DNA of 53,440 nt from an uncultured Bacilli bacterium (GCA_947588935.1 CANQAU010000001.1:1-53440); one strand, 5' to 3'; positions 227 through 28,512 are shown, counted from the stretch's first letter. The notes: a model not told the origin generated them from the sequence alone. Numbers and translations: made by a program.

Positions 227-969
227 AATCATTTTATTTGACCGATGCCGGAAAAGTAAGAAGTCATAATGAAGATAGTGTCACCATATTAAAAAATGGA
301 AACAATGAATATTTGTTAATGGTCGCAGATGGAATGGGAGGACATCGAGCTGGAGAAGTCGCATCAAGTCTTGCCGTCACTCATTTTGGAAAACGATTTA
401 CATCGATGAGCAGTATTGGTTCCAAATTAGATGCCGTCAACTGGATGACGGATAATACGAATGAAGTAAATAAACAAATCCTGGATTATGCCGAAGAAAA
501 TCCAAATTCCAAAGGACTAGGGACAACGCTTGTCTTAGCTTTACTCACGAAAGATTATTTAATTTTTGGAAATATCGGCGATTCCTCTGGATATGTCGTA
601 AAAAACAAGAAATTGCATAAAATAACAAAAGATCATACGCTCGTCAATCTATTAGTGCAAGCAGGAGATTTAACCGAAGAAGAAGCCAAATTTCATCCAA
701 AGAAAAATGTGTTGATGAAAGCGTTAGGTGCCAGTGAAAAAGCAGAGCTCGACATCTTTGATGTAGAACGAGACGTAGAAGGAATTTTGTTATGTAGCGA
801 TGGACTTACGAGTATGCTATTAAATGAGCAAATTGAAAAAGTATTAAATGATGAGGAATTAGATATTGAAGAAAAAGTAATCAAACTCATTCGGAAAAGC
901 AACGCCAGAGGGGGAACCGATAATATATCAATCGCTTATTTAATGTTAGAGAGTGGTGAAAAATTATGA
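223..969 (+). CDS. stp: PP2C-family Ser/Thr protein phosphatase (Stp/PrpC)
   Basis: PP2C motifs are present: RSHNEDS, ADGMGGH, DGLTS, GGTDNIS. The start overlaps the rlmN stop and the stop overlaps the prkC start, which is the conserved stp-prkC operon layout. Confidence 0.9.
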   Translation: MKSFYLTDAGKVRSHNEDSVTILKNGNNEYLLMVADGMGGHRAGEVASSLAVTHFGKRFTSMSSIGSKLDAVNWMTDNTNEVNKQILDYAEENPNSKGLGTTLVLALLTKDYLIFGNIGDSSGYVVKNKKLHKITKDHTLVNLLVQAGDLTEEEAKFHPKKNVLMKALGASEKAELDIFDVERDVEGILLCSDGLTSMLLNEQIEKVLNDEELDIEEKVIKLIRKSNARGGTDNISIAYLMLESGEKL

Positions 970-2732
970 TTATGAAGGGGCAAAAGATTAGTGATCGTTA
1001 CCAAATTATCAAATCGATTGGAGAAGGTGGAATGGCAAATGTCTACCTTGCTTACGATACCATTCTTGATCGAAATGTTGCGGTTAAAGTATTACGAGGC
1101 GATTTATCGACAGATGAAAAATTTGTCAGAAGATTTCAAAGAGAAGCACTTGCAGCAAGTAGTTTGAGCCATCCCAATATTGTGGAAGTGTACGATGTTG
1201 GTGAAGATAATGGTCAATACTATATCGTCATGGAATACATTGAAGGAAAACACTTAAAAGAATTATTAAAAAAACGTGGAAAACTGACAATTCCAGAAGT
1301 TATTGATATCATGCTCCAAATCACCGATGGATTAAGTGTTGCCCATGATTCTTATATCATTCACCGTGACATTAAACCCCAAAACATCATGATTGAAGAA
1401 AATGGATTAGTAAAAATTACCGATTTTGGAATTGCTATGGCCATGAATGCCACCCAATTAACCCAAACCAATTCGGTCATGGGAAGTGTTCACTACCTTC
1501 CACCGGAACAAGCAAGTGGTAAAGGTTCAACCTTACAAAGTGATATTTACTCTATGGGAATTTTAATGTACGAATTACTCACAGGAAAATTGCCTTATAA
1601 AGGAGATAATGCCGTAGAAATTGCATTAAAGCATTTAAAAGAAACATTACCGAGTATTAAAAATGAACTTCCTGATTTGCCACAAAGTATCGAAAATATC
1701 ATCATTCGGGCCACCGCAAAAAATCCCAAAAATCGATACACGGATGCCAGAGAAATGCACGAAGATTTGCTTACATGTATGGAAGAAGCAAGACTGCATG
1801 AACCAAAGATTATCTTAGAATACCCAGAAGATACAGATAATGTGAAAGTATCCAAAAAGTTAACAGAAGCTCAAAAAGAAGAAAAGAAAACAGAAAATAA
1901 AAAGGAAGAGGAAGAACCCTTGGCAAAACAAATTACCAAAAATGATTTAAAAAAGCAAAATCGATTATTGATTGTCCTTGCCTCCATTTTCACGGGATTA
2001 ATTGTTATTGTCACCTCTGTTGTCGTACTAATACCAGCCTTAACAAGACAAAAAGAAATCACTGTTCCAAATGTGGTAGGAAAAAGTGAAGAAGAAGCCA
2101 TTCAAATATTGCAAGAAGCAGGTTTTTTGGTATCGGATGAAGTAGAAACCATTGCATCTGATGAAGTCAAAGAAGGAAGTGTCGTAAAAACCAATCCAGC
2201 AACTGGTAGTAAAAGAACGACCGGAACGACTGTAACGCTTTATTTAAGCGAAGGAGATGCCAAAATTACAGTCGAAAACTATGTTGGACAAGATTACACG
2301 TACGTTCAAGGATTGCTAGAAGGAAAATTACAAGTATTCATTGAGAAAAAAGATGTTACAGATCCAGAAGTGGAACAAAATAAAGTTATCGAACAATCTG
2401 TCCCAGAAGGAACAAAATTATCAAAAGGAGACATGATTACACTCTATATTCCAAATATTGAAATATATCCTGATTTTACAAATGGAGAATATGACATCGA
2501 GGAAGTAAAAGCCTTCTTAAGTGATTATGGTGTCACGGTAACAGTAGTTGAACAAGCCGACACCACCCATACTCCAGGAACCGTCATTAAACAATCCAGA
2601 AAAGCCGGAGATCCAATTGTCAGAGGAGTTTCCATAACGATTACCGTTGCCAAAGCACCAGAACAAGAGGGAAATAAACCGAATTTACCGAACAGCGATC
2701 CAGCATGTGAAGCAGGATCAGGATTGTGCTAA
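966..2732 (+). CDS. prkC: Ser/Thr protein kinase PrkC with a TM segment and three extracellular PASTA repeats
   Basis: Hanks kinase motifs are present: GEGGMANVY, VAVK, HRDIKPQN, DFGIA. A hydrophobic TM segment (LLIVLASIFTGLIVIVTSVVVLI) is followed by three PASTA-like repeats (ITVPNVVGK..., ITVENYVGQ..., IYPDFTNGEY...). Confidence 0.9.
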   Translation: MIMKGQKISDRYQIIKSIGEGGMANVYLAYDTILDRNVAVKVLRGDLSTDEKFVRRFQREALAASSLSHPNIVEVYDVGEDNGQYYIVMEYIEGKHLKELLKKRGKLTIPEVIDIMLQITDGLSVAHDSYIIHRDIKPQNIMIEENGLVKITDFGIAMAMNATQLTQTNSVMGSVHYLPPEQASGKGSTLQSDIYSMGILMYELLTGKLPYKGDNAVEIALKHLKETLPSIKNELPDLPQSIENIIIRATAKNPKNRYTDAREMHEDLLTCMEEARLHEPKIILEYPEDTDNVKVSKKLTEAQKEEKKTENKKEEEEPLAKQITKNDLKKQNRLLIVLASIFTGLIVIVTSVVVLIPALTRQKEITVPNVVGKSEEEAIQILQEAGFLVSDEVETIASDEVKEGSVVKTNPATGSKRTTGTTVTLYLSEGDAKITVENYVGQDYTYVQGLLEGKLQVFIEKKDVTDPEVEQNKVIEQSVPEGTKLSKGDMITLYIPNIEIYPDFTNGEYDIEEVKAFLSDYGVTVTVVEQADTTHTPGTVIKQSRKAGDPIVRGVSITITVAKAPEQEGNKPNLPNSDPACEAGSGLC

Positions 2733-7544: not shown

Positions 7545-10220
7545 ATGAAGGAAGTAAAACGTTTTTTTGATAGCATTAGCTTTCAAGAAGAAGAATTTTT
7601 AAAGGATACGACGATTGAAAAAGTCCTATTAAAAAAACAAAGTCAAGAATTTGAAGTTTATTTGCATCGCCCTTTTGCTATGCCTTATAACAGTTATAAA
7701 AATCTTTTAAATTGTGCAGAAAAGGGGATTTATCAAACATCAAAAGTAAAAATCAAAATGCACTATGACGAAATCAGAAAAGATGACATCATCGATTACA
7801 TTACCAATATCAAAAAAGAATTAATTGAAGAAAAACCATCCCTCATGGGAATGAAAGATACCAATATTTTATATGATGAAGATATCATCACTTTTGAAGT
7901 AACAAGTATTTACGAAGAATCTGAAATCAAAAAAGAAGCAAAAAAAATCAAAGAAAAATTAATGATGGCTGGACTGGGGGATATCGAAATTTCCACTTTT
8001 TTAAATTTAGATTTAAAAGAGGAAGTCAAAAAAGAAATTGAAAACAGTAAAATAAACGAACCCAAAAAAGAAGACATTTTAGAAAGAAAAGAAGGAGAAC
8101 CCATCGTTGGAAAAAAGATTGAAGGGGAACCCATTGTTATTAATAATATTATGGGAGATATGAAAAATGTCATCTTAGAAGTTTTTGTTTTTGACAAAGA
8201 AACAATGGAAAGAGAAACCATTAATATCTTAACGTTGAAAATCTCAGATAAAACCAATAGCATTTTAGCTAAAATTTTTAAAAAGAAAAAAGATGAATTT
8301 AAAACAGTGGAGAAAGCCATTAAAATTGGCAAATGGTATCGAGTACAAGGAAATGTCGAATTTGATAACTTTGCCAAAGATTTAGTTTTAGCCATTCGAA
8401 ATATGGAAGAGATTCCTTCAAAAGATGAAGTCATTCAAGATGAAGAACCAGAAAAAAGAGTAGAATTACACGCCCATACCATGATGAGTGCAATGGATGG
8501 TGTCATTGAAGGAAAAGATTTGGTAAATTATGCAATGAAATTAGGACACAAAGCCGTTGCCGTAACCGATCATAACTGTGTTCAATCTTTTCCAGAAATG
8601 TATCACGCCGTTCGCGATTACAACAAAGGAAAAGAAGGTAGCGATCGCTTTAAAGTGCTGTATGGTGCAGAGCTAAACGTTGTCAACGATGACATTGATG
8701 TCGTATATAATCCAAAAGAATATAACTTTTTAAATGAAACATTTGTTGTATTTGATACTGAAACGACCGGATTTTATGCCGGCCATGATCAGATGATTGA
8801 AATTGGTGCCGTCAAAATCAAAAACGGAGAAATTATCGACCGTTTTGATGAACTCATCGATCCTCATCGTCCGATTCCTACCAAAATTACCGAATTAACC
8901 TTTATCACCGATGAAATGGTCCAAGGAAAAGACAACGAAGAACAAGTCACCAAACGCTTTTTAAAATGGGCTCAAGATTTCCCAATGGTTGCGCATAACG
9001 CCAAGTTTGATATTTCCTTTATGTCTTCAGCGATGAATAAATATGGTTTAGGATCATTTACTAACACCGTCGTCGATACCATGAGTTTAGCCAGAATTTT
9101 AAACCCAGATTGGGCAAATCATAAACTCCAAACATTGACAAGAAAATACAACATCGAATGGGACGAAGAAAAGCACCATCGTGCTGATTATGATGCAGAA
9201 GGAACTGCCTTAGCATTCTATAAGATGTGTAAAGTTTTATATGATCGAAATATTGAAACAACCATGGACCTATATAAATCGATTGACATTGATTCACTGA
9301 TTCGTTTCTCTTATCCTTTTCACGCCACCATACTATCTCAAAACCGCGAAGGATTAAAAAATTTATTTAAAATTATCTCCATCGCTAACACAAAATATTT
9401 ATATAAAAACGAACAGCCAAAAATTCCACGCCAAGAAATCCAAAATCTGAGAAAAGGATTATTAATTGGCAGTGGTTGTATTAACGGTGAAATTTTCAAT
9501 GCAGCGATGACGAAAGATGATGAAGAATTAGTCAATATGATGAGTTTTTATGATTACATTGAGGTCCAACCAATCAGTGCCTGCTTGCATTTAGTCGGAG
9601 AAAATAGAACCTTCCAAACGACATTAGAACTACAACAAAATATTGAAAAGATCATTCGTGTCGCCAAATCCGCCGGAAAGCCAGTGGTTGCCACCAGCGA
9701 TGCCCATCATCTGACCAAAGAAGATAAAATATATCGAGAAATTATTATTAATCAGAAATTCAATGGTCGCTTGCATCCATTAAATCGAAAAGGAATGACC
9801 GTACCGGATATGCATTTATTAACCACGAGAGAAATGTTGGATGAATTTTCCTTTTTAGACGAAGAAACAGCCAAAGAAATTGTCATTACCAATCCAAATA
9901 AAATTGCCGATAGCATTGAAGAAATTGAAGTCATCATTGAAACCGGAGGAATTCCCTTTGCACCAATCATTGAAAATTCACAGATGACTGTTACCAATAT
10001 GGTTTATGAAAAAGCCAAAGAGTGGTATGGAGATCCGCTCCCTTATCACATTGAAGAGCGAATTGCACTAGAACTTTACGGTGCATCATTTATTGATGCA
10101 ATCAAAAAGAATGCCAAAGAGGATGAAAAAGAAATTTATAAACGGATGCATGAAGTTGTCATAAAAGGACCCGATGCCGTTCAAGAAGAAATTTATGAAA
10201 GTCTTAGAATCCTCAGATGA
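7545..10220 (+). CDS. polC: PolC (Gram-positive replicative DNA polymerase III), N-terminal portion with PHP and DEDD exonuclease domains. It is terminated by a frame change.
   Basis: Motifs: VELHAHTMMSAMDG (PHP), VVFDTETTGF...HNAKFDISF...HRADYDAE (DEDDh proofreading exonuclease). The frame ends at the TGA at 10218-10220, while the rest of PolC continues in the +1 frame. Confidence 0.85.
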   Translation: MKEVKRFFDSISFQEEEFLKDTTIEKVLLKKQSQEFEVYLHRPFAMPYNSYKNLLNCAEKGIYQTSKVKIKMHYDEIRKDDIIDYITNIKKELIEEKPSLMGMKDTNILYDEDIITFEVTSIYEESEIKKEAKKIKEKLMMAGLGDIEISTFLNLDLKEEVKKEIENSKINEPKKEDILERKEGEPIVGKKIEGEPIVINNIMGDMKNVILEVFVFDKETMERETINILTLKISDKTNSILAKIFKKKKDEFKTVEKAIKIGKWYRVQGNVEFDNFAKDLVLAIRNMEEIPSKDEVIQDEEPEKRVELHAHTMMSAMDGVIEGKDLVNYAMKLGHKAVAVTDHNCVQSFPEMYHAVRDYNKGKEGSDRFKVLYGAELNVVNDDIDVVYNPKEYNFLNETFVVFDTETTGFYAGHDQMIEIGAVKIKNGEIIDRFDELIDPHRPIPTKITELTFITDEMVQGKDNEEQVTKRFLKWAQDFPMVAHNAKFDISFMSSAMNKYGLGSFTNTVVDTMSLARILNPDWANHKLQTLTRKYNIEWDEEKHHRADYDAEGTALAFYKMCKVLYDRNIETTMDLYKSIDIDSLIRFSYPFHATILSQNREGLKNLFKIISIANTKYLYKNEQPKIPRQEIQNLRKGLLIGSGCINGEIFNAAMTKDDEELVNMMSFYDYIEVQPISACLHLVGENRTFQTTLELQQNIEKIIRVAKSAGKPVVATSDAHHLTKEDKIYREIIINQKFNGRLHPLNRKGMTVPDMHLLTTREMLDEFSFLDEETAKEIVITNPNKIADSIEEIEVIIETGGIPFAPIIENSQMTVTNMVYEKAKEWYGDPLPYHIEERIALELYGASFIDAIKKNAKEDEKEIYKRMHEVVIKGPDAVQEEIYESLRILR

Positions 10221-12045
10221 AGAATTAAAAGAGGCTGCCAAGAAAAAAATGACTGCCATCATTGGTGCTAATTTTGACGTCATTTATTTAATCGCTCAAA
10301 AATTAGTAAAGCACTCTAATGATGAAGGGTTTCTCGTAGGAAGCCGAGGCTCCGTTGGATCATCATTTGTAGCCAATTTAATGGGAATCACCGAAGTAAA
10401 TGCCTTAGCACCGCACTATCGTTGTCCAAAATGTAAACACAGTGAATTTAATAACGAAAAAGGAGAACCACTCGGAAATGAATATAAATGTGGGTATGAC
10501 TTACCAGATAAAATGTGTCCAATTTGTAAAATCAAAATGGTTAAAGAAGGACAAGATATTCCATTTCAAACCTTCCTGGGCTTTAATGCCGATAAAGTTC
10601 CAGATATTGACTTAAATTTCTCCGATTTAAATCAAGCCTCTGCTCACGAATATACGAAAGTATTATTTGGAGTAGATAATGTATATCGTGCTGGAACCAT
10701 TGGTACCGTAGCAGAAAAAACCGCTTATGGATATGTTAAAGGATACTGTGAAGAAAAAAATATTATTATGCGCAGTGTCGAAATCGAACGACTAGCCAAA
10801 GGATGTACTGGTGTAAAACGTACAACTGGTCAACATCCAGGAGGAATCGTGGTTATCCCAGGTTACATGGAAGTATTTGACTTTACACCATTCCAATATC
10901 CAGCAGAAGATCCAACAAGTGCATGGAGAACAACGCACTTTGATTATCATGCCATCGATGAATGTGTCTTAAAACTAGATATTTTAGGTCACACCGATCC
11001 AACCCAACTAAGAATGATTCAGGATTTAACCAAAGAAGATGTCCGAAATGTGCCATTAGATGATAAAGAGACCATGTCCATCTTTACAAGTACCAAAGCC
11101 CTCGGTGTTACGCCCGAACAAATTATGTGCGATACTGGAACCCTTGGCGTACCAGAATTCGGCACCCCATTTACCATCCAATTAGTCAAAGACACAAAAC
11201 CAAAAACCTTCGCTGAATTAATCAAAATATCAGGCCTATCTCATGGAACAGACGTATGGTTAGGAAATGCGCAAGAATTAATTCAAAAAGACATTGTTCC
11301 ATTTAGTAAGGTAATCGGTTGTCGAGATGACATCATGGTAGAACTCATGTATGGAGGACTAGAACCATTCAAAGCTTTCAAAATTATGGAATTCGTTCGA
11401 AAAGGAAAGGCCAGCAAAGATCCAGAAACTTGGGCAGGATATGTAGAAATTATGGAAAAAGCCAAAATTCCAGATTGGTTTATTAAATCTTGCTTTAAAA
11501 TCAAATACATGTTCCCAAAAGCTCATGCCGCCGCTTATGTCATGAGTGCCTACCGCATTGCTTGGTATAAAGTTCATAAACCAGCCATCTATTATGCAAC
11601 CTATTTTTCAACTCGCTTTGAAGATTTTGATTTAGAAGTCATGATGAAAGGCTACGATGCCATCAAAGCAAAAATGATGGAAATTCAAAGTAAAGGCTAT
11701 GATGCAACCAATAAAGATCAATCCGTATTAGAAACCTTAAAACTATCCTTAGAAGCAACCGCCAGAGGATTTAAATTTGGAGCACTAGACATCAATAAAA
11801 GTGATGCAACAAACTTTTTAATTGATGAACAAGATGAATATACGCTCATTCCTCCATTTCGAACACTGGATGGTTTGGGAGATGCCGTTGCCAAAAAAAT
11901 CATTGAAGAGAGAAATCAAAAGCCATTCTATAGTGTAGAAGATTTTCAACTTCGTGGCAAAGTCAATGCGACAACCGTTGAAAAATTAAGAAGTTTAGGA
12001 CTATTTGAAGGAATGCCAGAAACAAGTCAATTAAGCTTATTCTAA
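10174..12045 (+). CDS. polC: PolC, C-terminal polymerase core portion, in the +1 frame relative to the upstream part
   Basis: Motifs: IIGANFDVIYLIAQKLV, GSRGSVGSSFVA, the zinc module CPKCKHSEF...CPICK, PDIDLNFS, KAHAAAY. This frame is open only from 10165 and overlaps the upstream frame by 47 nt. Confidence 0.85.
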   Translation: MPFKKKFMKVLESSDEELKEAAKKKMTAIIGANFDVIYLIAQKLVKHSNDEGFLVGSRGSVGSSFVANLMGITEVNALAPHYRCPKCKHSEFNNEKGEPLGNEYKCGYDLPDKMCPICKIKMVKEGQDIPFQTFLGFNADKVPDIDLNFSDLNQASAHEYTKVLFGVDNVYRAGTIGTVAEKTAYGYVKGYCEEKNIIMRSVEIERLAKGCTGVKRTTGQHPGGIVVIPGYMEVFDFTPFQYPAEDPTSAWRTTHFDYHAIDECVLKLDILGHTDPTQLRMIQDLTKEDVRNVPLDDKETMSIFTSTKALGVTPEQIMCDTGTLGVPEFGTPFTIQLVKDTKPKTFAELIKISGLSHGTDVWLGNAQELIQKDIVPFSKVIGCRDDIMVELMYGGLEPFKAFKIMEFVRKGKASKDPETWAGYVEIMEKAKIPDWFIKSCFKIKYMFPKAHAAAYVMSAYRIAWYKVHKPAIYYATYFSTRFEDFDLEVMMKGYDAIKAKMMEIQSKGYDATNKDQSVLETLKLSLEATARGFKFGALDINKSDATNFLIDEQDEYTLIPPFRTLDGLGDAVAKKIIEERNQKPFYSVEDFQLRGKVNATTVEKLRSLGLFEGMPETSQLSLF

Positions 12046-18263: not shown

Positions 18264-18737
18264 GTGGACTTCCAAAATTTTTTAATTAAAGAAACCAAAT
18301 TTGACGAAAAGATTGATATTCCAAAAGAAAAGTACCAAAACACGGATATTCGTGATTTAAAAGATCTCCGAGTGCAAGGATCAATGAAAAAAAATAATGA
18401 TCAAGAATATGTATTGCAAATAACTTTAACTGGAGAAATGATCTTACCAGATGCCAGAACCCTAGAAAATGTCACCATGCCATTACATATCCAGATGGAA
18501 GAAAAAGTAACTTCTTCCAATGAAGAGATAGAACAATATTTAGGAAAAAATCAAAATACACTTGATATTATGGGAATTTTATGGGAAAATATTGTACTGG
18601 AAGTTCCCATTGCGATATCAAACAGCCAAGAAGAAACAAAGAAGGGGATAGGTTGGGAATTCGTCAGTGAAAAAAAAGAAAGTATTGATCCAAGATTAGC
18701 TCCGCTACGGAAGCTACTTGATGAAGAAAAGGAGTGA
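18264..18737 (+). CDS. YceD/YlbN (DUF177) family protein
   Basis: An acidic ~157-aa protein immediately upstream of and overlapping the rpmF leader, which is the conserved yceD-rpmF pairing. Confidence 0.65.
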
Positions 18738-18741
18738 TAAT

Positions 18742-18954
18742 ATGTTAAAATTAGATCTTCAAGCATTTGCAGTTCCTTTTAGAAGAACAAGTAAGACAAA
18801 AAAAAGAATGCGTCGTACACATTTGAAAAAAGAAGTAAGTGCAATGACAACATGCCCAAAATGTGGAGCAAATTTAAAGCCTCATCGTGCATGTCCAAAA
18901 TGCGGCAATTATAAAGGCGAAGAAAAATTAAATATCAAAAAAGAAGAAGAATAG
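18742..18954 (+). CDS. rpmF: 50S ribosomal protein L32 with a 9-residue N-terminal extension (MLKLDLQAF)
   Basis: The AAGGAG SD at 18729-18734 lies 7 nt before the ATG at 18742. The product is [27 protein letters not shown]...CPKCG...CPKCG, i.e. the L32 signature (AVPxRRTSK plus a zinc ribbon) preceded by an extension. Confidence 0.85.
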
Positions 18955-18977
18955 CATACCACTAGGTATGTTTTTTT
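18955..18977 (+). terminator. Intrinsic terminator after rpmF
   Basis: CATACC-acta-GGTATG hairpin followed by T7. Confidence 0.7.
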
Positions 18978-19038
18978 GTGATATTCATAAAAGGGAAAAA
19001 GAAAAATATGCTATAATTAGAAAAGAAGGTGTAATTTT

Positions 19039-20346
19039 ATGTATCAAAATCAAAAGATATTCATTTTTGGAATGGCCAAAAGTGGTTACGAATGTGCCAA
19101 ATTCTTAAGTAAGAACAATGAAATTCTCATCACAGATGCCAAAGAGCAAGAGGAAGAACATTTAAAACTACTAAAACAACTAGGAGTAACGTTCATTCAA
19201 ACCGATACACCCGAAGAGTTATTAGATGAAACATTTGATGTAGTAGTAAAAAATCCAGGAATCATCATGACGCATCCACTTGTGAAAAAAGCCCAAGAAT
19301 TGCAGATTCCCATTATCAATGAAATGGAAGTAGCTTACCACTATCTACCAGAGAATGTTACCATTATTGGCGTGACAGGATCCAATGGTAAAACTACCAC
19401 GACCACTCTGATTTACGAAATGCTAAAAAAGATGAACGTTCCAGTTCACTTAGGTGGAAATATTGGTTTTCCTTTATGCAGTATTCTTCCATCAATCAAA
19501 CCAAATGACGTTCTTTTACTAGAAATCTCTGATCATCAACTATTAAATATGAAAGATTTTAAAACCAATATCAGTGTTCTAACCAATTTATGTCCAACAC
19601 ACTTAGACTTTCATGGCTCCTATGAAAATTATAAAAAAGTAAAACAAAAAATCTTTCAGCACCATACCCAAAAAGATATCGCAATCATTAACGCGACCAA
19701 TGAAGATTCCCTAAAAGAAACCGAAAAAATCCCATCCCAAAAGAAATATTTTACCAAACAAGATTGTTATATAAACGAAAATACGATTTATTTAAATGAT
19801 GAACCAATCATTCATCTTGAGGATATCAAATTAAAAGGAATGCATAATTATGAAAATATTATGGCCGCTCTTTTAGTAGTAAATGAATTTCACATGCAAA
19901 AAGAAAAAGTGTGTGAAGTGTTAAAAAACTTTGGTGGAGTAGAACATCGTTTAGAATTTGTAAAAAGAGTAAATGACATTGATTATTATAACGATTCCAA
20001 GTCCACCAATCCAACTTCTACCATTACCGCCTTAAAAAGTTTTCAAACGCCAGTTTTATTAATTTTAGGAGGCTTTGAACGCCAGCAAGATTTTTTTGAA
20101 TTAAAAGAACATATGCAATATGTAAAAAAGATTTACGCAATGGGAGAAACTAAAGATAGAGTAGAAGAATTCGCCAAAAAGATGAGCATCCCATGTACCA
20201 AAAAAGAAACACTTCAAGAAGTAATGAAAGAAATTAAAAAAGATGCCATCAAAAATGACACCGTTTTATTATCTCCTGCCTGTGCTTCTTGGGATCAATA
20301 CGATAAATTTGAAGATCGAGGAGCAGAATTTAAAAGCCTCATCTAA
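19039..20346 (+). CDS. murD: UDP-N-acetylmuramoyl-L-alanine--D-glutamate ligase
   Basis: Mur ligase P-loop GVTGSNGKTTTT, an N-terminal Rossmann region (IFGMAKSG), and NDSKSTN plus a C-terminal domain typical of MurD. Confidence 0.9.
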   Translation: MYQNQKIFIFGMAKSGYECAKFLSKNNEILITDAKEQEEEHLKLLKQLGVTFIQTDTPEELLDETFDVVVKNPGIIMTHPLVKKAQELQIPIINEMEVAYHYLPENVTIIGVTGSNGKTTTTTLIYEMLKKMNVPVHLGGNIGFPLCSILPSIKPNDVLLLEISDHQLLNMKDFKTNISVLTNLCPTHLDFHGSYENYKKVKQKIFQHHTQKDIAIINATNEDSLKETEKIPSQKKYFTKQDCYINENTIYLNDEPIIHLEDIKLKGMHNYENIMAALLVVNEFHMQKEKVCEVLKNFGGVEHRLEFVKRVNDIDYYNDSKSTNPTSTITALKSFQTPVLLILGGFERQQDFFELKEHMQYVKKIYAMGETKDRVEEFAKKMSIPCTKKETLQEVMKEIKKDAIKNDTVLLSPACASWDQYDKFEDRGAEFKSLI

Positions 20347-21869
20347 TTTTCTTTCTTTTTGATTAAACGATAAGGAGGTTTCATTTGCATCGTGGCCTCA
20401 TCAATATAAACGGAATCACAACTTCCATCACTCATACAAAGTTCATGAAAAGCAGGGTCTATGACATTGGCAAGAGCCACTTTAAGTCCACTGGCACCTT
20501 GCTTTTCTTGTGCAGCTCGACGAACAAATTCCCAAAGGGCAGATTGATCAATTTGTAAATGAAATCCCCATTTTTCAAAAGATTGTTGATATTCATATAA
20601 ACAAGAGTCTTCTGGCATCACCAAAATGTCATATAAATTTTGCATAGATAATGGATGAATTTGACAAAGGCGAATGCGACGTAAATACTCAAGTGGAAGA
20701 CCATAACGATTTAAATCTTCTAAAGTAATTTCCGTTTGAACAACATTTGGATGCGCTTGAAATCCTAAAGAAGAAGATTTTCGTTGTAATTCTTGGGATA
20801 ATTCAGCAAATGCTCCAATCGTAATAAATAAAACTTGATTGGTACAAAATTGAATGTAACGTGGATATACTTCGGAACCAATATTAATATGAAAAGTTCC
20901 ACCTTCAATCATCGTTAGCAAACTATTTAATACGCGAATACCAGAAACGTCATTCTGATCACGGGTTACTTTTTTATCAATTTCATCAATCACCACAATT
21001 CCGTGTTCCGCTTTTTCTAGATTATCCTCAGCTTGATGATAAAGTTGAACTAAAATATCCGAAAGAGAATTTCCTTCATATCCGGCAACCGAGTAAAAAG
21101 AACTATCAACCGTAACCATTGGAACTTCAATTTTTTCTTGGATTCTTCTCAAGATTTCCGTTTTTCCACAACCGGAAGGTCCTATAATCATCATATTGGT
21201 TTTATTTCGATAATTTTGAAGTTGAAAATGGCGATATAAAGTAGCAAGTACAGTTTGAATCGCTTCATCTTGACCTTTAATATAATGAGTTAAATAGCGA
21301 TAAAAATCAGCATAAGTTGGAAGAGACGAAAGGCTAGTAGTTGAAGAAAGATTTTGCGAATTTTCACTCGTTTCTTCTTTATCAGAATAAACAAGAACAC
21401 TCTCATCAGACGGATTACAAAAATTTTGGAAATCCAAATCGGATTCTTCGTTCATATAATGAACATCTCCCATATCATTGGAAACCGCAATAACCGACAT
21501 TTTATATTCATCCAAACATAAAGCATAGGTAGTAGCAATATTTTGATCATAATCAATTTTTTGAAAGTAAAGCTTTTGATTTAATTCATCGAGATAATAA
21601 TTAAAAGCATTCTCAAGATCCTCATCATCCGATTTTTCATTCAATTGAAACTTTTTTTGAAAATCTTCCCAAGAAATTGCAAATTCAGCCATCGGATAAG
21701 TGACATCATCGTCATTTAAAAAAGCACTCATATAACTTCCCATATTCTCAACATCAAAGAAATTGTCAATAAGATTACAACGTACGATATGCGTTGGATG
21801 TACTTGAATATAATCCGTAGAATCACAAGTTTTATAGCATAACGCCGCAAGATAACGAAATTTTTTCAT
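20343..21869 (-). CDS. ClpX-like AAA+ ATPase with a non-canonical N-terminal domain
   Basis: Walker A IIGPSGCGKTE, Walker B VVIDEIDKK, a pore-loop-like AGYEG, LGF at the position of the ClpX IGF loop, and a ClpX-like C-terminal lid (GASGLK). The first ~190 aa are unrelated to the ClpX zinc-binding domain. The ATG at 21869 is preferred over the TTG at 21881. Confidence 0.65.
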   Translation of the reverse strand: MKKFRYLAALCYKTCDSTDYIQVHPTHIVRCNLIDNFFDVENMGSYMSAFLNDDDVTYPMAEFAISWEDFQKKFQLNEKSDDEDLENAFNYYLDELNQKLYFQKIDYDQNIATTYALCLDEYKMSVIAVSNDMGDVHYMNEESDLDFQNFCNPSDESVLVYSDKEETSENSQNLSSTTSLSSLPTYADFYRYLTHYIKGQDEAIQTVLATLYRHFQLQNYRNKTNMMIIGPSGCGKTEILRRIQEKIEVPMVTVDSSFYSVAGYEGNSLSDILVQLYHQAEDNLEKAEHGIVVIDEIDKKVTRDQNDVSGIRVLNSLLTMIEGGTFHINIGSEVYPRYIQFCTNQVLFITIGAFAELSQELQRKSSSLGFQAHPNVVQTEITLEDLNRYGLPLEYLRRIRLCQIHPLSMQNLYDILVMPEDSCLYEYQQSFEKWGFHLQIDQSALWEFVRRAAQEKQGASGLKVALANVIDPAFHELCMSDGSCDSVYIDEATMQMKPPYRLIKKKEN

Positions 21870-21924
21870 TAATAACACCAACTTTTAAAAATATAGTATA
21901 CATGCAAAATGAAGAGGAAGCAAT

Positions 21925-21957: not shown

Positions 21958-22034
21958 TGGTGTTCGCGGGGAGATTCGAACTCTCGACCGATCGCTTAGA
22001 AGGCGATTGCTCTATCCAACTGAGCTACGCGAAC
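21958..22034 (-). tRNA. tRNA-Arg (anticodon UCU)
   Basis: The reverse complement folds by hand as a cloverleaf: acceptor GTTCGCG/CGCGAAC, D-arm GCTC-AGTTGGATA-GAGC, anticodon arm ATCGC-CTTCTAA-GCGAT, T-loop TTCGAAT, with an encoded CCA. There is one A-C mismatch in the T-stem. Confidence 0.85.
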
Positions 22035-24766: not shown

Positions 24767-24842
24767 CAGAAATGTTATTTTTTTTTGAAATAAAAAAGGA
24801 AATGCAAATCCCATCTTGAATATGAATAATGAGGGAGATAAA

Positions 24843-26912
24843 GTGCAAAAAAAATTAATCGTCAAACAACAAGATCAAAAAGACTGTGGAGTATGTTGTC
24901 TTTTATCCATACTAAAATACTTTAAAGGTTACGTTCCGTTAGAACAAATTCGTTTAGATACAAAAACATCAAATCTAGGAACCAGTGCCTTTCATATGGT
25001 TGAAACACTCAAGAAATATGGTTTTGATGCATATGGATGTAAAATCAAAAAAGAAGAATTTTGGAATACGGAGTTTCCTCTTCCAGCCATCGTTCATGTA
25101 GTATTAGATAGTGGACAAAATCATTACATGGTTTTATATGAAAAAAGAAAAGAAAAAGTGGTTTTAATGGATCCTAGTTTTGGAAAGCGAGTGATGACGG
25201 AAAGTGATTTTTTCTGGATATGGTCAGAAGTATTATTAATAGCATATCCAAAAGAAGAAATAATAAAACGGGAACAAACAGATCATAAAATGCAAGTTTT
25301 TTTGACTTATTTAGGAAAAAAGAAAAGTCTTTTTCTCAAATTAATTGGTAGTGAAATGATTTTATTGGTAATAAGTATTGGAAGTTCCTTTTACCTAAAA
25401 GTTGCAAATGCCTTTTTAGAAAGAAAAAACGAAATTCTTTTCATAACTGTCTTTTTTGCTTGGTTATTAATTTTAAAGATTATCATGATGAAAGAAATTT
25501 TGAAAAAGAATCACTCTTTAAATAAACACTTAGAACTTTTACATGTTACAAATTATTTAGATCATGTAAAAAATCTTCCTCTTTCCTTGTTTAAAACAAG
25601 AACCATCGGGGACTATTTAAATCGTTTTTGGGAAAATACGGAAATCAAATACTTATATAGCGAAATAATGAAAAATAAAATTCTCTCAGTCATTACCATT
25701 TTTCTTTGTTTTGTCTTACTATATGGTTATCAAAGTTTCTTCTTTCATTTTTATCTCTTCGTCTTTTTGGTTTTTTCCATTTTTATGCTTTGCATTCATC
25801 AAGAAAACTATCAAAAAGAAAGAGAACGATTAGAAGCAAAATGCCAATATCAAGATCGATTATTAGAAAGGTTAAAGCAAAATGAAGTAATACATCATTT
25901 AGGAATTGAAAAATATACACAACCGAAAGAAGAAGCAGATTTAATTTGTTTTTTAAAACAGAATGAAGAAATCGAAAAATTTAATGAGAACATCAATTGG
26001 TTAGAAAATGCTTTAAAAGAAGGAACGGAATTTTTGTTTCTAGTACTGGGAGTATATCAAATGTCCAAAGGAAAATTAGAAATATTCAACTTTATCATGA
26101 TTGAAACCATCGGTTTTTATTTATTAAATTCCTTGGAAAATTTTGTTCAAACACTTTCGAAAGAAAAGTATTTAAACGAAATCATTCACAAAAATCAAGA
26201 ATTTCTTTCGCTTCCCATCGAAGAAGAAAGAAAAACCGATTCCTTTGAGCAAGGAGATATTTTCTTTAAAAATGTTTCCTTTTCTTATGATAATTATCGC
26301 TATGTATTAAAGGATTTAACCCTATGTATTACAAAAGGAACACATGTACTCTTAATGGGTGAAAGTGGAAGTGGAAAAAGTACAATTTGCAAATTGCTTC
26401 TAAAAGATGAAAAAACAATCAATGGAACAATAGAAATTGGGGACCATAACATTTTGGATATTCAAAAACAAGCATTGCATGAAAAAATAGTCTATTTAAA
26501 TCAAAAAAGTAACTTAATGACTGGAACCATCAAAGAAAATATTGTGATGTATAGACCCTTTCACACTTCGCGATTTGATCAAGTGTGTAAAATTTGTAAA
26601 ATTGAAGAAATTGTTCAAAAAAGACCTCTTCGTTATGAAACAACTATCAATAGTCAAGAAAATAATTTTTCTGGAGGAGAAAAAGCAAGAATTATGTTAG
26701 CAAGAACCCTGTATAAAGATGCCGAAGTCTATCTTTTAGATGAAGCGCTAAGTGAAATAGATGAACAAATGGAAAAAGAAATTATTAAAGACATGCGCGT
26801 TTTTCTGAAAGAAAAAACCGTTTTATATATTAGTCACCGAAAACTAAAAAGTCTATTCGACGAAACAAAGAAATGCGAGGAATGCCATGAAAGAATACTC
26901 ATATCTGAATAA
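24843..26912 (+). CDS. Peptidase-C39-containing ABC transporter (PCAT; exporter and processor of double-glycine-leader peptides)
   Basis: The N-terminal C39 domain has QQDQKDCGVCCL (catalytic Cys) and a downstream His (QNHYMVLY). It has a six-TM region, Walker A GESGSGKST, signature FSGGEKAR, Walker B YLLDEALSEID and an H-loop SHR. The GTG at 24843 is preceded by GAGGGAG; the ORF track starts it at the TTG at 24816. Confidence 0.9.
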   Translation: MQKKLIVKQQDQKDCGVCCLLSILKYFKGYVPLEQIRLDTKTSNLGTSAFHMVETLKKYGFDAYGCKIKKEEFWNTEFPLPAIVHVVLDSGQNHYMVLYEKRKEKVVLMDPSFGKRVMTESDFFWIWSEVLLIAYPKEEIIKREQTDHKMQVFLTYLGKKKSLFLKLIGSEMILLVISIGSSFYLKVANAFLERKNEILFITVFFAWLLILKIIMMKEILKKNHSLNKHLELLHVTNYLDHVKNLPLSLFKTRTIGDYLNRFWENTEIKYLYSEIMKNKILSVITIFLCFVLLYGYQSFFFHFYLFVFLVFSIFMLCIHQENYQKERERLEAKCQYQDRLLERLKQNEVIHHLGIEKYTQPKEEADLICFLKQNEEIEKFNENINWLENALKEGTEFLFLVLGVYQMSKGKLEIFNFIMIETIGFYLLNSLENFVQTLSKEKYLNEIIHKNQEFLSLPIEEERKTDSFEQGDIFFKNVSFSYDNYRYVLKDLTLCITKGTHVLLMGESGSGKSTICKLLLKDEKTINGTIEIGDHNILDIQKQALHEKIVYLNQKSNLMTGTIKENIVMYRPFHTSRFDQVCKICKIEEIVQKRPLRYETTINSQENNFSGGEKARIMLARTLYKDAEVYLLDEALSEIDEQMEKEIIKDMRVFLKEKTVLYISHRKLKSLFDETKKCEECHERILISE

Positions 26913-27318
26913 AATAAGTTATGAAATGGAAGAAGAAAAAAACTCCTTTTCGATTTGGATTGCCTTCTTTATCACTACCATGTTTATTCTTTCATGCACG
27001 TTGGAAATTTCAATTCAAACGCCCGTCAAAGCCATCTACCAACAAGAAACAAAATCGTTAATAATATCATGGCCTTATTATGATTTAGATAAAATTTATA
27101 AATTTGAAAATATGAAAATAGGAAAAGAAATCTATCCGTTTAAAATTCAAAAGATGAGCGATCTTTTATTAACAGACACACAACCAGAAAATTATCAGTT
27201 AATAGAATTACAGATTCCAACATCGTATTTAAACAATCAAGTGATAGAAATCAAATTGTTAGATAAAAAAGAACAGATTATCAAGAAAATATGGAAAATA
27301 GTAAGTGAAGGAGGATAA
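26887..27318 (+). CDS. Small single-pass membrane protein, a putative exporter accessory factor
   Basis: 143 aa with one TM (FSIWIAFFITTMFILSCTL). The start overlaps the PCAT stop (GAGGAA SD), and the stop lies 2 nt before peptide gene A. It is far shorter than HlyD/LcnD-type accessory proteins. Confidence 0.4.
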   Translation: MKEYSYLNKISYEMEEEKNSFSIWIAFFITTMFILSCTLEISIQTPVKAIYQQETKSLIISWPYYDLDKIYKFENMKIGKEIYPFKIQKMSDLLLTDTQPENYQLIELQIPTSYLNNQVIEIKLLDKKEQIIKKIWKIVSEGG

Positions 27319-27320
27319 GA

Positions 27321-27464
27321 ATGAAATTAACAAAAGAAGAATTACAAAAAATTAATGGAGGAGGGGTGTCAATAGGAATCATCGCTTTGGCAATCGGAGC
27401 ATTTGTAACGTTTGTCGCAGGATTTTTAGATGGTTTTGTCCGCCCACAATCTTGCAATGAATAA
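27321..27464 (+). CDS. Double-glycine-leader peptide A (47 aa; not in the ORF track)
   Basis: A GGAGGA SD lies 5 nt upstream of the ATG at 27321. The product is MKLTKEELQKINGG|GVSIGIIALAIGAFVTFVAGFLDGFVRPQSCNE: a typical GG leader followed by a hydrophobic 33-aa core with GxxxG motifs. Confidence 0.75.
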   Translation: MKLTKEELQKINGGGVSIGIIALAIGAFVTFVAGFLDGFVRPQSCNE

Positions 27465-27624
27465 ACTAAAAGAAGAACAACTAATCCAAATTATAGGAGG
27501 AAGCGATCTATTATCGGGAGCATTCCTTTCAGCTTTAGCGAAATGCATCGAATCAATAGCCGATGTCGGAAGAAAAATTGGCTCTGCCATTCGAAGAATA
27601 AAAAATGGAAATCTTTGTCCTTGA
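27457..27624 (+). CDS. Double-glycine-leader peptide B (55 aa; an internal start of the 64-aa track ORF)
   Basis: The ATG at 27457 overlaps the last codons and stop of peptide A (AATGAATAA). The product is MNKLKEEQLIQIIGG|SDLLSGAFLSALAKCIESIADVGRKIGSAIRRIKNGNLCP: a GG leader followed by a cationic amphipathic 40-aa core with two Cys and a GxxxG motif. Confidence 0.75.
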   Translation: MNKLKEEQLIQIIGGSDLLSGAFLSALAKCIESIADVGRKIGSAIRRIKNGNLCP

Positions 27625-27672
27625 AGAAGAAATCGAATAATTATATAATAAAGACAAGAATGGAGGGAGTAT

Positions 27673-28512
27673 ATGAAAAAGAAAAACGGATTTATTGCAG
27701 TATCAGTCATCTACTCCTTCTTTTTAGTCTTTCTAATGATTATGCTATCGGTAACCGTAAACAATGCACAAAATCGAACATTATTATCGGCCATCAAAGA
27801 AGACATTAAATTAAGTTTGAATCAAGATGAAGAATTTATTGTCAACACATTGCCAAATCGTGATAAAACGGATTTATACCAAATAGGAGATGAAGTGAAT
27901 TTTGTAGGAGAATCATGGTTAGTAGTAAATAATAAAGCAGACTCCGTCGTTTTGGTTTTAAAAAGAGCTTTAAATCAAAGGGAAGTGTTAGAATCCTTAA
28001 ACGTAGAAGCCTCTGATGCATACTATTTTAATAATGAATGTACAGAAGCAAGATGTAAAACCAGAATGTGTGCAACATCCTACAGTAGCAATTTCTGCTT
28101 TTATGAATCCGCAGCAAATTATTATTACTATGAATGGGATGAAAGCATTGCCAAAAAAGTCGTAGACAATTGGTTTATTAATAACGATAATTTGCAAAAA
28201 GCTTGTCGCTTACAATATGACATTGCTGCCGATAAGCGAATTTGTACGAAAAATACATTAATAAATATGACCTTTACAGATGGCTTGCAAGAATACGAAG
28301 GATACATTCGCATCCCTACAAGTGAAGAAGCAAATCAAGGGATGACGACTTGGGTTGGAAATAATGGTGGATATTATGCACCGGAAGCGTGGACACTTAC
28401 AAACGCCAATCAAACATTAGGTCAAAGTTATGGATATGATATCAGTGGAAACATACAAGAACACACCCAAACGATGACAATCCGACCTGTCATTGAAGTA
28501 AGAAAAAACTAG
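27673..28512 (+). CDS. Cys-rich exported or anchored protein with a prepilin-like N-terminus
   Basis: GGAGGGAG SD. The N-terminus MKKKNG|FIAVSVIYSFFLVFLMIMLSV resembles class-III (pseudopilin, ComGG-like) signals that lack Glu+5. It has six Cys in the central region, and the C-terminal pattern RIPTSEEA...EAWTLTNAN...IRPVIEV resembles DUF6273-type surface domains (recalled similarity). Confidence 0.4.
   Translation: MKKKNGFIAVSVIYSFFLVFLMIMLSVTVNNAQNRTLLSAIKEDIKLSLNQDEEFIVNTLPNRDKTDLYQIGDEVNFVGESWLVVNNKADSVVLVLKRALNQREVLESLNVEASDAYYFNNECTEARCKTRMCATSYSSNFCFYESAANYYYYEWDESIAKKVVDNWFINNDNLQKACRLQYDIAADKRICTKNTLINMTFTDGLQEYEGYIRIPTSEEANQGMTTWVGNNGGYYAPEAWTLTNANQTLGQSYGYDISGNIQEHTQTMTIRPVIEVRKN

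Follow-up and report, generated by a model that had tools for sequence, protein, structure and literature searches.

Our analysis of a 53,440-nucleotide (nt) stretch of DNA from an uncultured Bacilli bacterium (GCA_947588935.1 CANQAU010000001.1:1-53440; hereafter the window, meaning that whole stretch) reveals an rpmF gene, encoding ribosomal protein bL32, in which nine residues precede the canonical L32 N-terminus and resemble the propeptide that the protease Prp removes from ribosomal protein bL27. In particular, rpmF starts at 18742-18744 and reads ATG TTA AAA TTA GAT CTT CAA GCA TTT ↓ GCA GTT CCT TTT AGA AGA, encoding a pre-L32 with the N-terminus MLKLDLQAF↓AVPFRR (the arrow marks the predicted cut). 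A first-pass annotation of the window had placed the start at this ATG, with a Shine-Dalgarno (SD) sequence AAGGAG 7 nt upstream, and had held that the extension cannot be removed by re-calling the start; direct reading agrees on both counts. Specifically, codons 2-9 of rpmF contain no table-11 start (ATG, GTG, TTG, CTG, or ATH), and the sole other in-frame start, TTG 18718, falls inside yceD near its 3′ terminus and lacks an SD; its use would merely make the extension longer.

The extension is outside the L32 family model. The Pfam model Ribosomal_L32p (PF01783) matches with 72.1 bits (cut-off 21.3), residues 10-63 of the encoded protein being aligned with model positions 1-54. In alignments with L32 sequences of the PDB, residue 10 of the window protein aligns with residue 1 to 5 in 34 of 34 cases, the exact position varying by species. 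The built chain of B. subtilis bL32 starts AVPFRRTSK, and Ala10 of the window protein pairs with the second residue of B. subtilis pre-L32, the first of the chain in 5njt. The Pfam match and the PDB sequences bear out the earlier proposal that a cut at this point would give the canonical L32 N-terminus. At the DNA level, comparison with a canonical relative shows the extension as a clean insertion of 24 nt (8 codons) between ATG and GCA, i.e. between Met1 and Ala2, with the SD unchanged.

The resemblance to L27 that the first-pass annotation had reported holds against the published S. aureus sequence: the extension has the length of the L27 extension MLKLNLQFF, is identical to it at 7 of 9 positions, and is followed by Ala at P1′ (PMC9405229). 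The chance of finding [ND][LI]Q.F-A at one fixed position is p ~1.4e-6 under the amino-acid composition of the window, and a strict regular expression for the propeptide, applied to all six frames of the window, matches the rpmF site only. Together with the comparisons below, these observations make it likely that the L32 extension is a propeptide removed by Prp.

Conservation of the L32 extension

A homology search that used the whole window L32 as query, and made no use of the motif, yielded as its best 120 clusters 56 canonical forms (M-AVPFRR), 62 extended forms, and 2 upstream start mis-calls. The extended forms mostly have an extension of 8 or 9 residues (12-16 in six that are called from an upstream start), and all 62 have the junction [NDE][LI]Q.F↓[AG]. 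Residue usage in the 62 extensions, counted back from the predicted cut, is as follows: P1 is Phe in all 62; P2 is Leu in 39, Arg in 11, Ala in 7, Lys in 3, and Glu and Met in 1 each; P3 is Gln in all 62; P4 is Leu in 39 and Ile in 23; P5 is Asn in 37, Asp in 23, and Glu in 2; P6 is Leu in 54, Phe in 6, and Met in 2; and P7 is Lys or Arg in 54.

A genome scan was performed on GTDB species representatives, one genome per species, with a 42-nt degenerate DNA pattern for [NDEK]-x-Q-x-F-[AG]-V-P-x-x-x-T-S-K. The pattern has one match in the window, none in 100 shuffles of the window, and none in viral contigs. The scan gave at least 119 loci, each a true rpmF with a propeptide, with no false positives among the matches listed. 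ENA, Logan, JGI, and NCBI each contribute independent assemblies with an extension of the window's type. The two comparisons proposed at first pass, an alignment of rpmF orthologues and a check of close relatives for an assembly artefact, thus both come out on the side of the extension, which is present in the 62 homologues and at least 119 species above and is kept in the independent assemblies of relatives.

The census reveals constraint at positions that the search pattern left free. Specifically, P6 is Leu in 107 of 116 related species, and P4 is only Leu or Ile across the 116 species; the propeptide is 8 or 9 residues long in 115 of 116 (9 in the window). P2 is Leu in about 61% of species (the junction peptide in this form is KLNLQLFAVPFRR) and is otherwise Arg, Ala, Lys, Glu, Thr, or Met. 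The propeptide Leu residues are spelled by five codons (TTA, CTA, CTT, TTG, and CTG). Of 117 related loci, 114 have an SD-like motif within 20 nt 5′ of the corresponding ATG, and 50 have no other in-frame start. These sequences are evidence that the extension is translated and that selection acts on it at the protein level.

A further L32 subfamily, with AVPFRKVSK in place of the canonical start, was identified in an exhaustive search of cluster representatives (P0375-P0399; MKLDIQMF↓AVPFRKVSKTRKRMRRSHNAM...) and is also propeptide-bearing. The census of at least 119 species is an undercount, because the pattern demands Thr where this subfamily has Val. Several cluster representatives of the subfamily are visibly frameshifted or chimeric.

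As a specificity control, every open reading frame (ORF) with 50 residues or more in the 1.22 Mb of DNA fetched was searched for Met followed, within 12 residues, by [NDE][LI]Q.F[AGS]. All matches to this N-terminal motif were in L32 genes (125) or L27 genes (19).

The carriers among the at least 119 loci are metagenome-assembled genomes (MAGs) recorded as uncultured Bacilli, Tenericutes, Mycoplasmatota, Acholeplasmataceae, or Erysipelotrichaceae. They have a G+C content (GC) of 21-35% and originate from the gut of rabbits, mice, chickens, ruminants, and humans. One carrier is a closed genome of 1.256 Mb (OZ006994.1). Names have been given to two carriers, Ca. Ventrenecus stercoripullorum and Ca. 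Fimihabitans intestinipullorum, and the second of these has been placed in GTDB order RF39, family CAG-822 (PMC8035907). In the genomes covered, the extension is confined to one large group of uncultured, small-genome, low-GC gut Bacilli.

Prp, L27, and the fit of the L32 junction

One contig of the group, L098 (CANRHY010000110.1, 2917 bp, from a rabbit gut MAG), carries yceD, rpmF, rplU, prp, and rpmA together (Table 1). Its rpmF and rpmA share NLQLF↓A on one molecule, so that binning errors are immaterial. The encoded Prp matches the S. aureus Prp structures (4PEO/7KLD) with E = 1.2e-14; used as a seed, it retrieved 67 closest homologues, all with the catalytic His22/Cys34 dyad and Asp31 (S. 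aureus numbering). When S. aureus and L098 Prp are added to the 67, all 69 sequences have G21, H22, D31, C34, and S38. With L098 L27 as seed, all 120 closest clusters have a long propeptide, which comprises 11 residues in 110 of them and ends in [DN][LI]QLF↓AS[KH]K, the exceptions among the 120 junctions being a single Cys (P3) and a single Phe (P2). The order rplU-prp-rpmA is present in every L27/Prp contig examined that reaches upstream of rpmA, and prp has been reported in all Firmicutes and other bacteria with a long L27 (bioRxiv 10.64898/2026.08.10.744006). By analogy with these relatives and with the Prp literature, the genome from which the window derives would also encode Prp.

Several features of these loci were observed in passing. 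The arrangement of L098 is not shared by other loci of the same L32 subgroup that have enough downstream sequence. Many relatives (L130-L149) have a pair of genes for a VbhA-like antitoxin and a Fic toxin close downstream of rpmA. The L27 propeptides of P0246-P0365 have the form MKF-M-x-x-[DN][LI]QLF, mostly of 11 residues, with an internal Met at position 4; some L27 gene calls start at this internal Met, giving an 8-residue form of the length of most L32 propeptides.

The structure of S. aureus Prp (SaPrp) with Ac-KLNLQFF (7KLD) provides a frame for reading the junction. In this structure P1-P7 are engaged: F1, F2, L4, and L6 are in hydrophobic environments; the side chain of Q3 is buried with full hydrogen bonding; and N5 bonds the backbone of Q3 (PMC9261936). 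Substitution of P3 by Ala or Glu abolishes SaPrp cleavage (PMC9261936). By alignment, the conserved residues of the L32 extension (P1 Phe, P3 Gln, P4 Leu/Ile, P5 Asp/Asn, P6 Leu, and P1′ Ala) correspond to SaPrp contact positions; the exception is P2, which is contacted by SaPrp but varies in L32. Compared with the motif (D/N)-L-Q-(F/L)-F↓A, the window junction fits at P6 Leu, P5 Asp, P4 Leu, P3 Gln, P1 Phe, and P1′ Ala and differs at P2, which is Ala.

The processing that we propose is as follows. The window rpmF would be translated into a bL32 precursor whose first 9 residues are a bL27-type propeptide. Prp (a cysteine protease, Peptidase_Prp PF04327, MEROPS C108), presumably encoded between rplU and rpmA elsewhere in the genome, would act on this precursor, recognising P6-P1 (L-D-L-Q-x-F) and cutting between Phe9 and Ala10. 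The cut would release AVPFRRTSK..., the N-terminus that canonical L32 gains by methionine removal.

An alternative is that the extension is a permanent, lineage-specific tail of mature L32, uncleaved and making extra contacts in the 50S subunit, with a superficial likeness to L27. Lineage-specific extensions of ribosomal proteins do occur, T. thermophilus and D. radiodurans L32 having 3-4 extra N-terminal residues. However, the six conserved positions are the Prp recognition positions, and F↓A stands exactly before the canonical N-terminus; an uncharged hydrophobic 8-mer is unlike tails that bind ribosomal RNA (rRNA); the motif occurs elsewhere in the fetched DNA only on L27; and the mitochondrial homologue must shed its N-terminal region before assembly. 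We consider a permanent tail very unlikely.

A second alternative accepts removal and assigns it to a protease other than Prp, either a general trimming enzyme or an Rrp-like rescue, with the motif serving another role, e.g. in folding or zinc loading. The precedent is S. pneumoniae TIGR4, in which the unrelated protease Rrp can process bL27 without Prp (bioRxiv 10.64898/2026.08.10.744006), and the frequently non-hydrophobic P2 of L32 would also suit a different enzyme. Rrp, however, is described as unspecific and located on a mobile element (bioRxiv 10.64898/2026.08.10.744006), whereas strict P1, P3, P4, P5, and P6 are expected from a sequence-specific enzyme with the pockets of Prp; moreover, prp is intact in L098, the one group member that could be checked, and in the relatives of L098. 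Removal by another protease is, in our judgement, very unlikely.

Several observations weigh against Prp processing of L32. The first concerns P2, where the window has Ala and other subgroups have Arg, Lys, Glu, or Thr, as compared with Leu or Phe in L27: SaPrp buries P2 in a hydrophobic pocket (PMC9261936), and the uncleavable S. aureus L27 mutant is a change of FF to AA. A His occupies P2 (LQHF↓A) in phage 80alpha gp47, which is cleaved in S. aureus along with one other phage protein (PMC9405229). The second is the prime side, A-V-P-F with Pro at P3′ as compared with A-S-K-K in L27; beyond Ala, the prime sides of L27 and phage substrates vary (ASKK, ADQS, and ASNN; PMC9405229), and AVPF is therefore no obstacle in principle. 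The third is length, 8-9 residues in L32 as compared with mostly 11 in the L27 of L098's relatives. The fourth is that rplU, prp, and rpmA are absent from the 53-kb window in six-frame motif scans; their usual neighbours were likewise not found by Pfam at the window ends and in most window genes. The fifth is linkage: the nine L27/Prp contigs (including CAYWED01, CAVICV01, JAIFIL01, CAZMCS01, GCA_016648615.1, and contigs from ENA/Logan) match none of the at least 119 census loci by accession or sample, and share no sample with the contigs of P0122, a species with an L32 nearly identical to that of the window, so that L098 alone links the L32 census directly to prp and rpmA. The L32 subgroup of L098 in turn differs from that of the window (MLKLDLQ[AET]F), with mature L32 at ~70% identity by eye.

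The last such observation is that some canonical M-AVPF L32 entries have a mature part 100% identical to that of extended forms (P0130/P0122 and P0055/P0012; also P0094 and P0176), which, if real, would mean that the propeptide is easily dispensable. Four P0130 contigs (L153-L156) are about 99-100% identical to an extended species from GCAGTTCC onward, through rpmF, spacer, and murD; upstream of GCAGTTCC their sequence either has no relation to that species or diverges strongly from it, yceD and the neighbouring genes being different, and the contigs end a few hundred bases later. The look-alike contigs are probably chimeric joins, at a conserved k-mer, between co-occurring relatives, and possibly real recombinants; in either case, canonical L32 occurs in close relatives that share the gene order. 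Near-identity downstream, unrelated sequence upstream, and early contig ends disfavour taking them as natural alleles of propeptide loss, and chimeric look-alikes inflate counts of such loss. A neighbour-joining tree of L32 gave 11 gain/loss changes, a figure that we rejected in view of the shortness of L32 and the probable chimeric origin of some canonical entries.

The same contigs bear on whether the extension itself is an artefact, i.e. the outcome of a wrong start, of misassembly at 18742-18770, or of gene conversion that left a non-functional relic of the 5′ end of rpmA. Three facts could be read this way: the window is a MAG contig with an apparent polC frameshift; some short contigs have a gene that is identical except for its canonical M-AVPF start; and the junction DNA of rpmF and rpmA in L098 is nearly identical (AATTTACAATTATTYGCA). 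Against this, the extension recurs in independent ENA, Logan, JGI, and NCBI assemblies and in at least 119 species, with synonymous codon variation, a conserved SD, and no alternative start; and the canonical look-alikes switch to unrelated sequence right at the conserved 5′ end of the mature part, as is typical of chimeric joins. An artefact is extremely unlikely.

With the census of at least 119 species, the match to Prp positions, and the prp gene and long L27 of L098, the suggestion made at first pass that L32 carries an L27-type, Prp-cleavable propeptide is the best-supported reading of these sequences. Prp probably has two ribosomal substrates, bL27 and bL32, in this gut Bacilli group.

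Surroundings of rpmF in the window

The gene order in the window, as determined with Pfam, is a ylbM-like HIGH nucleotidyltransferase gene (HIGH_NTase1, minus strand), yceD, rpmF, and murD. The order yceD-rpmF is the same in related contigs L001-L010 and in L098, HIGH_NTase1-yceD-rpmF is also present in relatives, and P0122 has the same gene neighbourhood as the window. The window rpmF is in its usual genomic place, downstream of yceD, as in the B. subtilis order ylbM-ylbN-rpmF. Coordinates of the features are given in Table 1.

Table 1. Positions of rpmF-associated features in the window and of the genes on contig L098
Molecule	Feature	Position	Strand	Remarks
Window	yceD (DUF177, 'large ribosomal RNA subunit accumulation protein')	18264..18737	+	Pfam PF02620; usual rpmF operon partner upstream
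Window	Shine-Dalgarno AAGGAG	18729..18734	+	
Window	rpmF coding sequence	18742..18954	+	70-codon pre-L32 and stop; PDB bL32 matches down to E = 4e-18
Window	propeptide codons (P9-P1), 9 codons	18742..18768	+	aligned as extended against canonical loci
Window	predicted Prp scissile site Phe9↓Ala10 (TTT↓GCA)	18766..18771	+	from F↓A of L27 and phage 80alpha gp46/gp47 and from homologue junctions
Window	mature L32 (predicted), 61 residues	18769..18951	+	CPKC...CPKC zinc ribbon; residue 1 aligns with residue 1 or 2 of B. subtilis bL32 in ribosome structures
Window	intrinsic-terminator-like hairpin and T-run	18953..18982	+	closes yceD-rpmF unit; 8-pair stem 18953-18972, then TTTTTGTGAT
L098	yceD	254-736		
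L098	rpmF	733-951		MKTNLQLF↓AVPFRRTSK
L098	gene of unassigned function, 143 residues	1022-1453		between yceD-rpmF and rplU-prp-rpmA
L098	rplU	1604-1906		
L098	prp	1909-2214		...SGHAKYDEYGKDIVCSAVSS...
L098	rpmA	2217-2504		MKYMLINLQLF↓ASHKGVGSTKNGRDS

The window has a GC of 31.7% and also contains prpC/prkC/rsgA/rpe, dnaE, polC, polA, fpg, and rbgA-rnhB-topA, together with sporulation-type genes (GerM-like and SpoIIIAH-like); its host belongs to the Bacilli, has a cell wall, and possesses at least a few genes of the sporulation type. Rfam, applied across the window, identified two transfer RNAs (tRNAs) only, and no RNA element at rpmF.

Three further loci in the window were noted in passing. 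The polC gene is split at 7545-12045 (+) into an ORF at 7545-10220 (PHP and exonuclease domains) and an ORF at 10174-12045 (pol III alpha, finger, and HHH domains), where relatives have a single gene of 1509 residues; the split is a frameshift or sequencing error in the MAG contig, at a position that could not be located by aligning the relatives, the sequences being too divergent. A gene for a 512-residue AAA+ protein (AAA_2/Clp-type ATPase domain) is located at 20343-21881 (-), between murD and a tRNA at 21961-22034 (-), and contigs L001-L010, which are closely related, lack it at this position. At 24816-27700 (+), a Peptidase_C39 ATP-binding cassette (ABC) exporter gene is followed by ORFs with no family match, where relatives have ORFs of 46 and 55 residues; this locus looks like a bacteriocin-type export locus.

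Possible propeptide function and known systems

In the proposed scheme, only processed L32 would fit its 50S site beside uL22, and the propeptide may delay or control incorporation of L32. The N-terminal tail of bL32 in 50S structures is an extended basic segment inserted into rRNA, so that a hydrophobic 8-mer on the tail would not fit. Published work places bL32 beside uL22 and bL17, with its N-terminal part also touching bL20 (PMC4881015). In E. coli particles without uL22 and bL32, the vacant site lets H61 thread through it; domain IV is misfolded, and uL2 is unable to bind (PMC11723945). A role of the propeptide as an extra checkpoint in 50S assembly, or as a timer of L32 entry, is plausible but speculative.

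A broader view, which we put forward tentatively and regard as possible rather than probable, is that the Prp propeptide is a portable module that was copied onto a second 50S protein in one radiation of genome-reduced gut Bacilli (RF39 and possibly related lineages), such that one protease gates two distant steps of 50S assembly. The first step would be docking of bL32 beside uL22, before uL2 binding and correct domain IV folding; the second would be entry of bL27 at the peptidyl transferase centre. The variable P2 of L32 could set a different cleavage rate, and hence the order of events.

A full-text literature search, which did not extend to most subscription journals (including the original papers by Wall et al.) and is thus not proof, found neither L32 as a Prp substrate nor a bacterial L32 propeptide, in agreement with the first-pass annotation, which was aware of no such description. 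A 2022 review of Prp lists L27, phage gp46/gp47, and the proposed FlhB as substrates and mentions L32 only as a tunnel protein (PMC9405229); a 2026 preprint from the group that discovered Prp gives only bL27 and phage proteins, and still calls the role of the cleavable bL27 extension unknown (bioRxiv 10.64898/2026.08.10.744006). As FlhB has already been proposed, a multi-substrate Prp is not new in itself; L32 as a substrate is. The enzyme and the signal are known, and the carrier protein is new and confined to an uncultured group.

A second, unrelated ribosomal protein with the same signal, kept in at least 119 species, amounts to an independent natural experiment: with the signal on L32 too, the role of the propeptide cannot be specific to the peptidyl transferase centre. 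Possible roles are a delay of binding, recruitment of Prp to the pre-50S particle, and protection of a basic tail. L32 would also widen the substrate list of Prp, a proposed antibiotic target, and its propeptide provides a sequence marker for poorly known gut bacteria.

The closest known system is bL27 with Prp (YsxB family), known in Firmicutes, Fusobacteria, Synergistetes, and some Tenericutes and Thermotogae. Like bL27, L32 has an N-terminal peptide, here of 8-9 residues, on a small basic 50S protein; has the motif (D/N)(L/I)Q-x-F↓A; would acquire, by the predicted cut, an N-terminal Ala equal to that of extension-less orthologues after Met removal; and occurs in a group of which one member has prp between rplU and rpmA. 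Unlike bL27, whose N-terminus reaches the peptidyl transferase centre, bL32 is located by uL22/bL17 on the solvent side; its P2 is variable (Leu, Arg, Ala, Lys, Glu, Thr, or Met) instead of Phe/Leu, and its prime side is A-V-P-F; and its predicted propeptide is present in one uncultured group of gut Bacilli instead of whole phyla.

Other carriers of the signal are more distant. The phage 80alpha scaffold protein gp46 and major capsid protein gp47, cleaved in S. aureus, are also non-L27 carriers of an L27-type signal, and resemble L32 in the non-hydrophobic P2 of gp47 and in their varying prime side (PMC9405229); they are, however, phage structural proteins that borrow a host enzyme, whereas L32 is a second core ribosomal protein of the host. 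The N-terminus of FlhB (B. subtilis MKLRVDLQFF...) has been proposed from bioinformatics as a second cellular Prp substrate (PMC9405229). That proposal, like ours, is based on a motif at the N-terminus that resembles the L27 one and on orthologues elsewhere that lack the extension, but FlhB is a flagellar export-gate protein and not ribosomal.

Within the L32 family itself, the N-terminus of mitochondrial MrpL32 must be processed by the m-AAA protease before ribosome assembly (PMC5438985). As would be the case for the window L32, N-terminal processing of MrpL32 precedes incorporation into the large subunit and leaves a folded zinc-binding domain intact (PMC5438985). In contrast to the L32 extension, the MrpL32 presequence comprises ~71 residues and is removed by ATP-dependent processive degradation that stalls at the folded domain, with the cut set by structure and not by a motif, and by an enzyme unrelated to Prp. 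If the Prp propeptide is indeed a portable module, L32 maturation in these gut Bacilli would be a bacterial, independently reached counterpart of m-AAA-dependent MrpL32 maturation.

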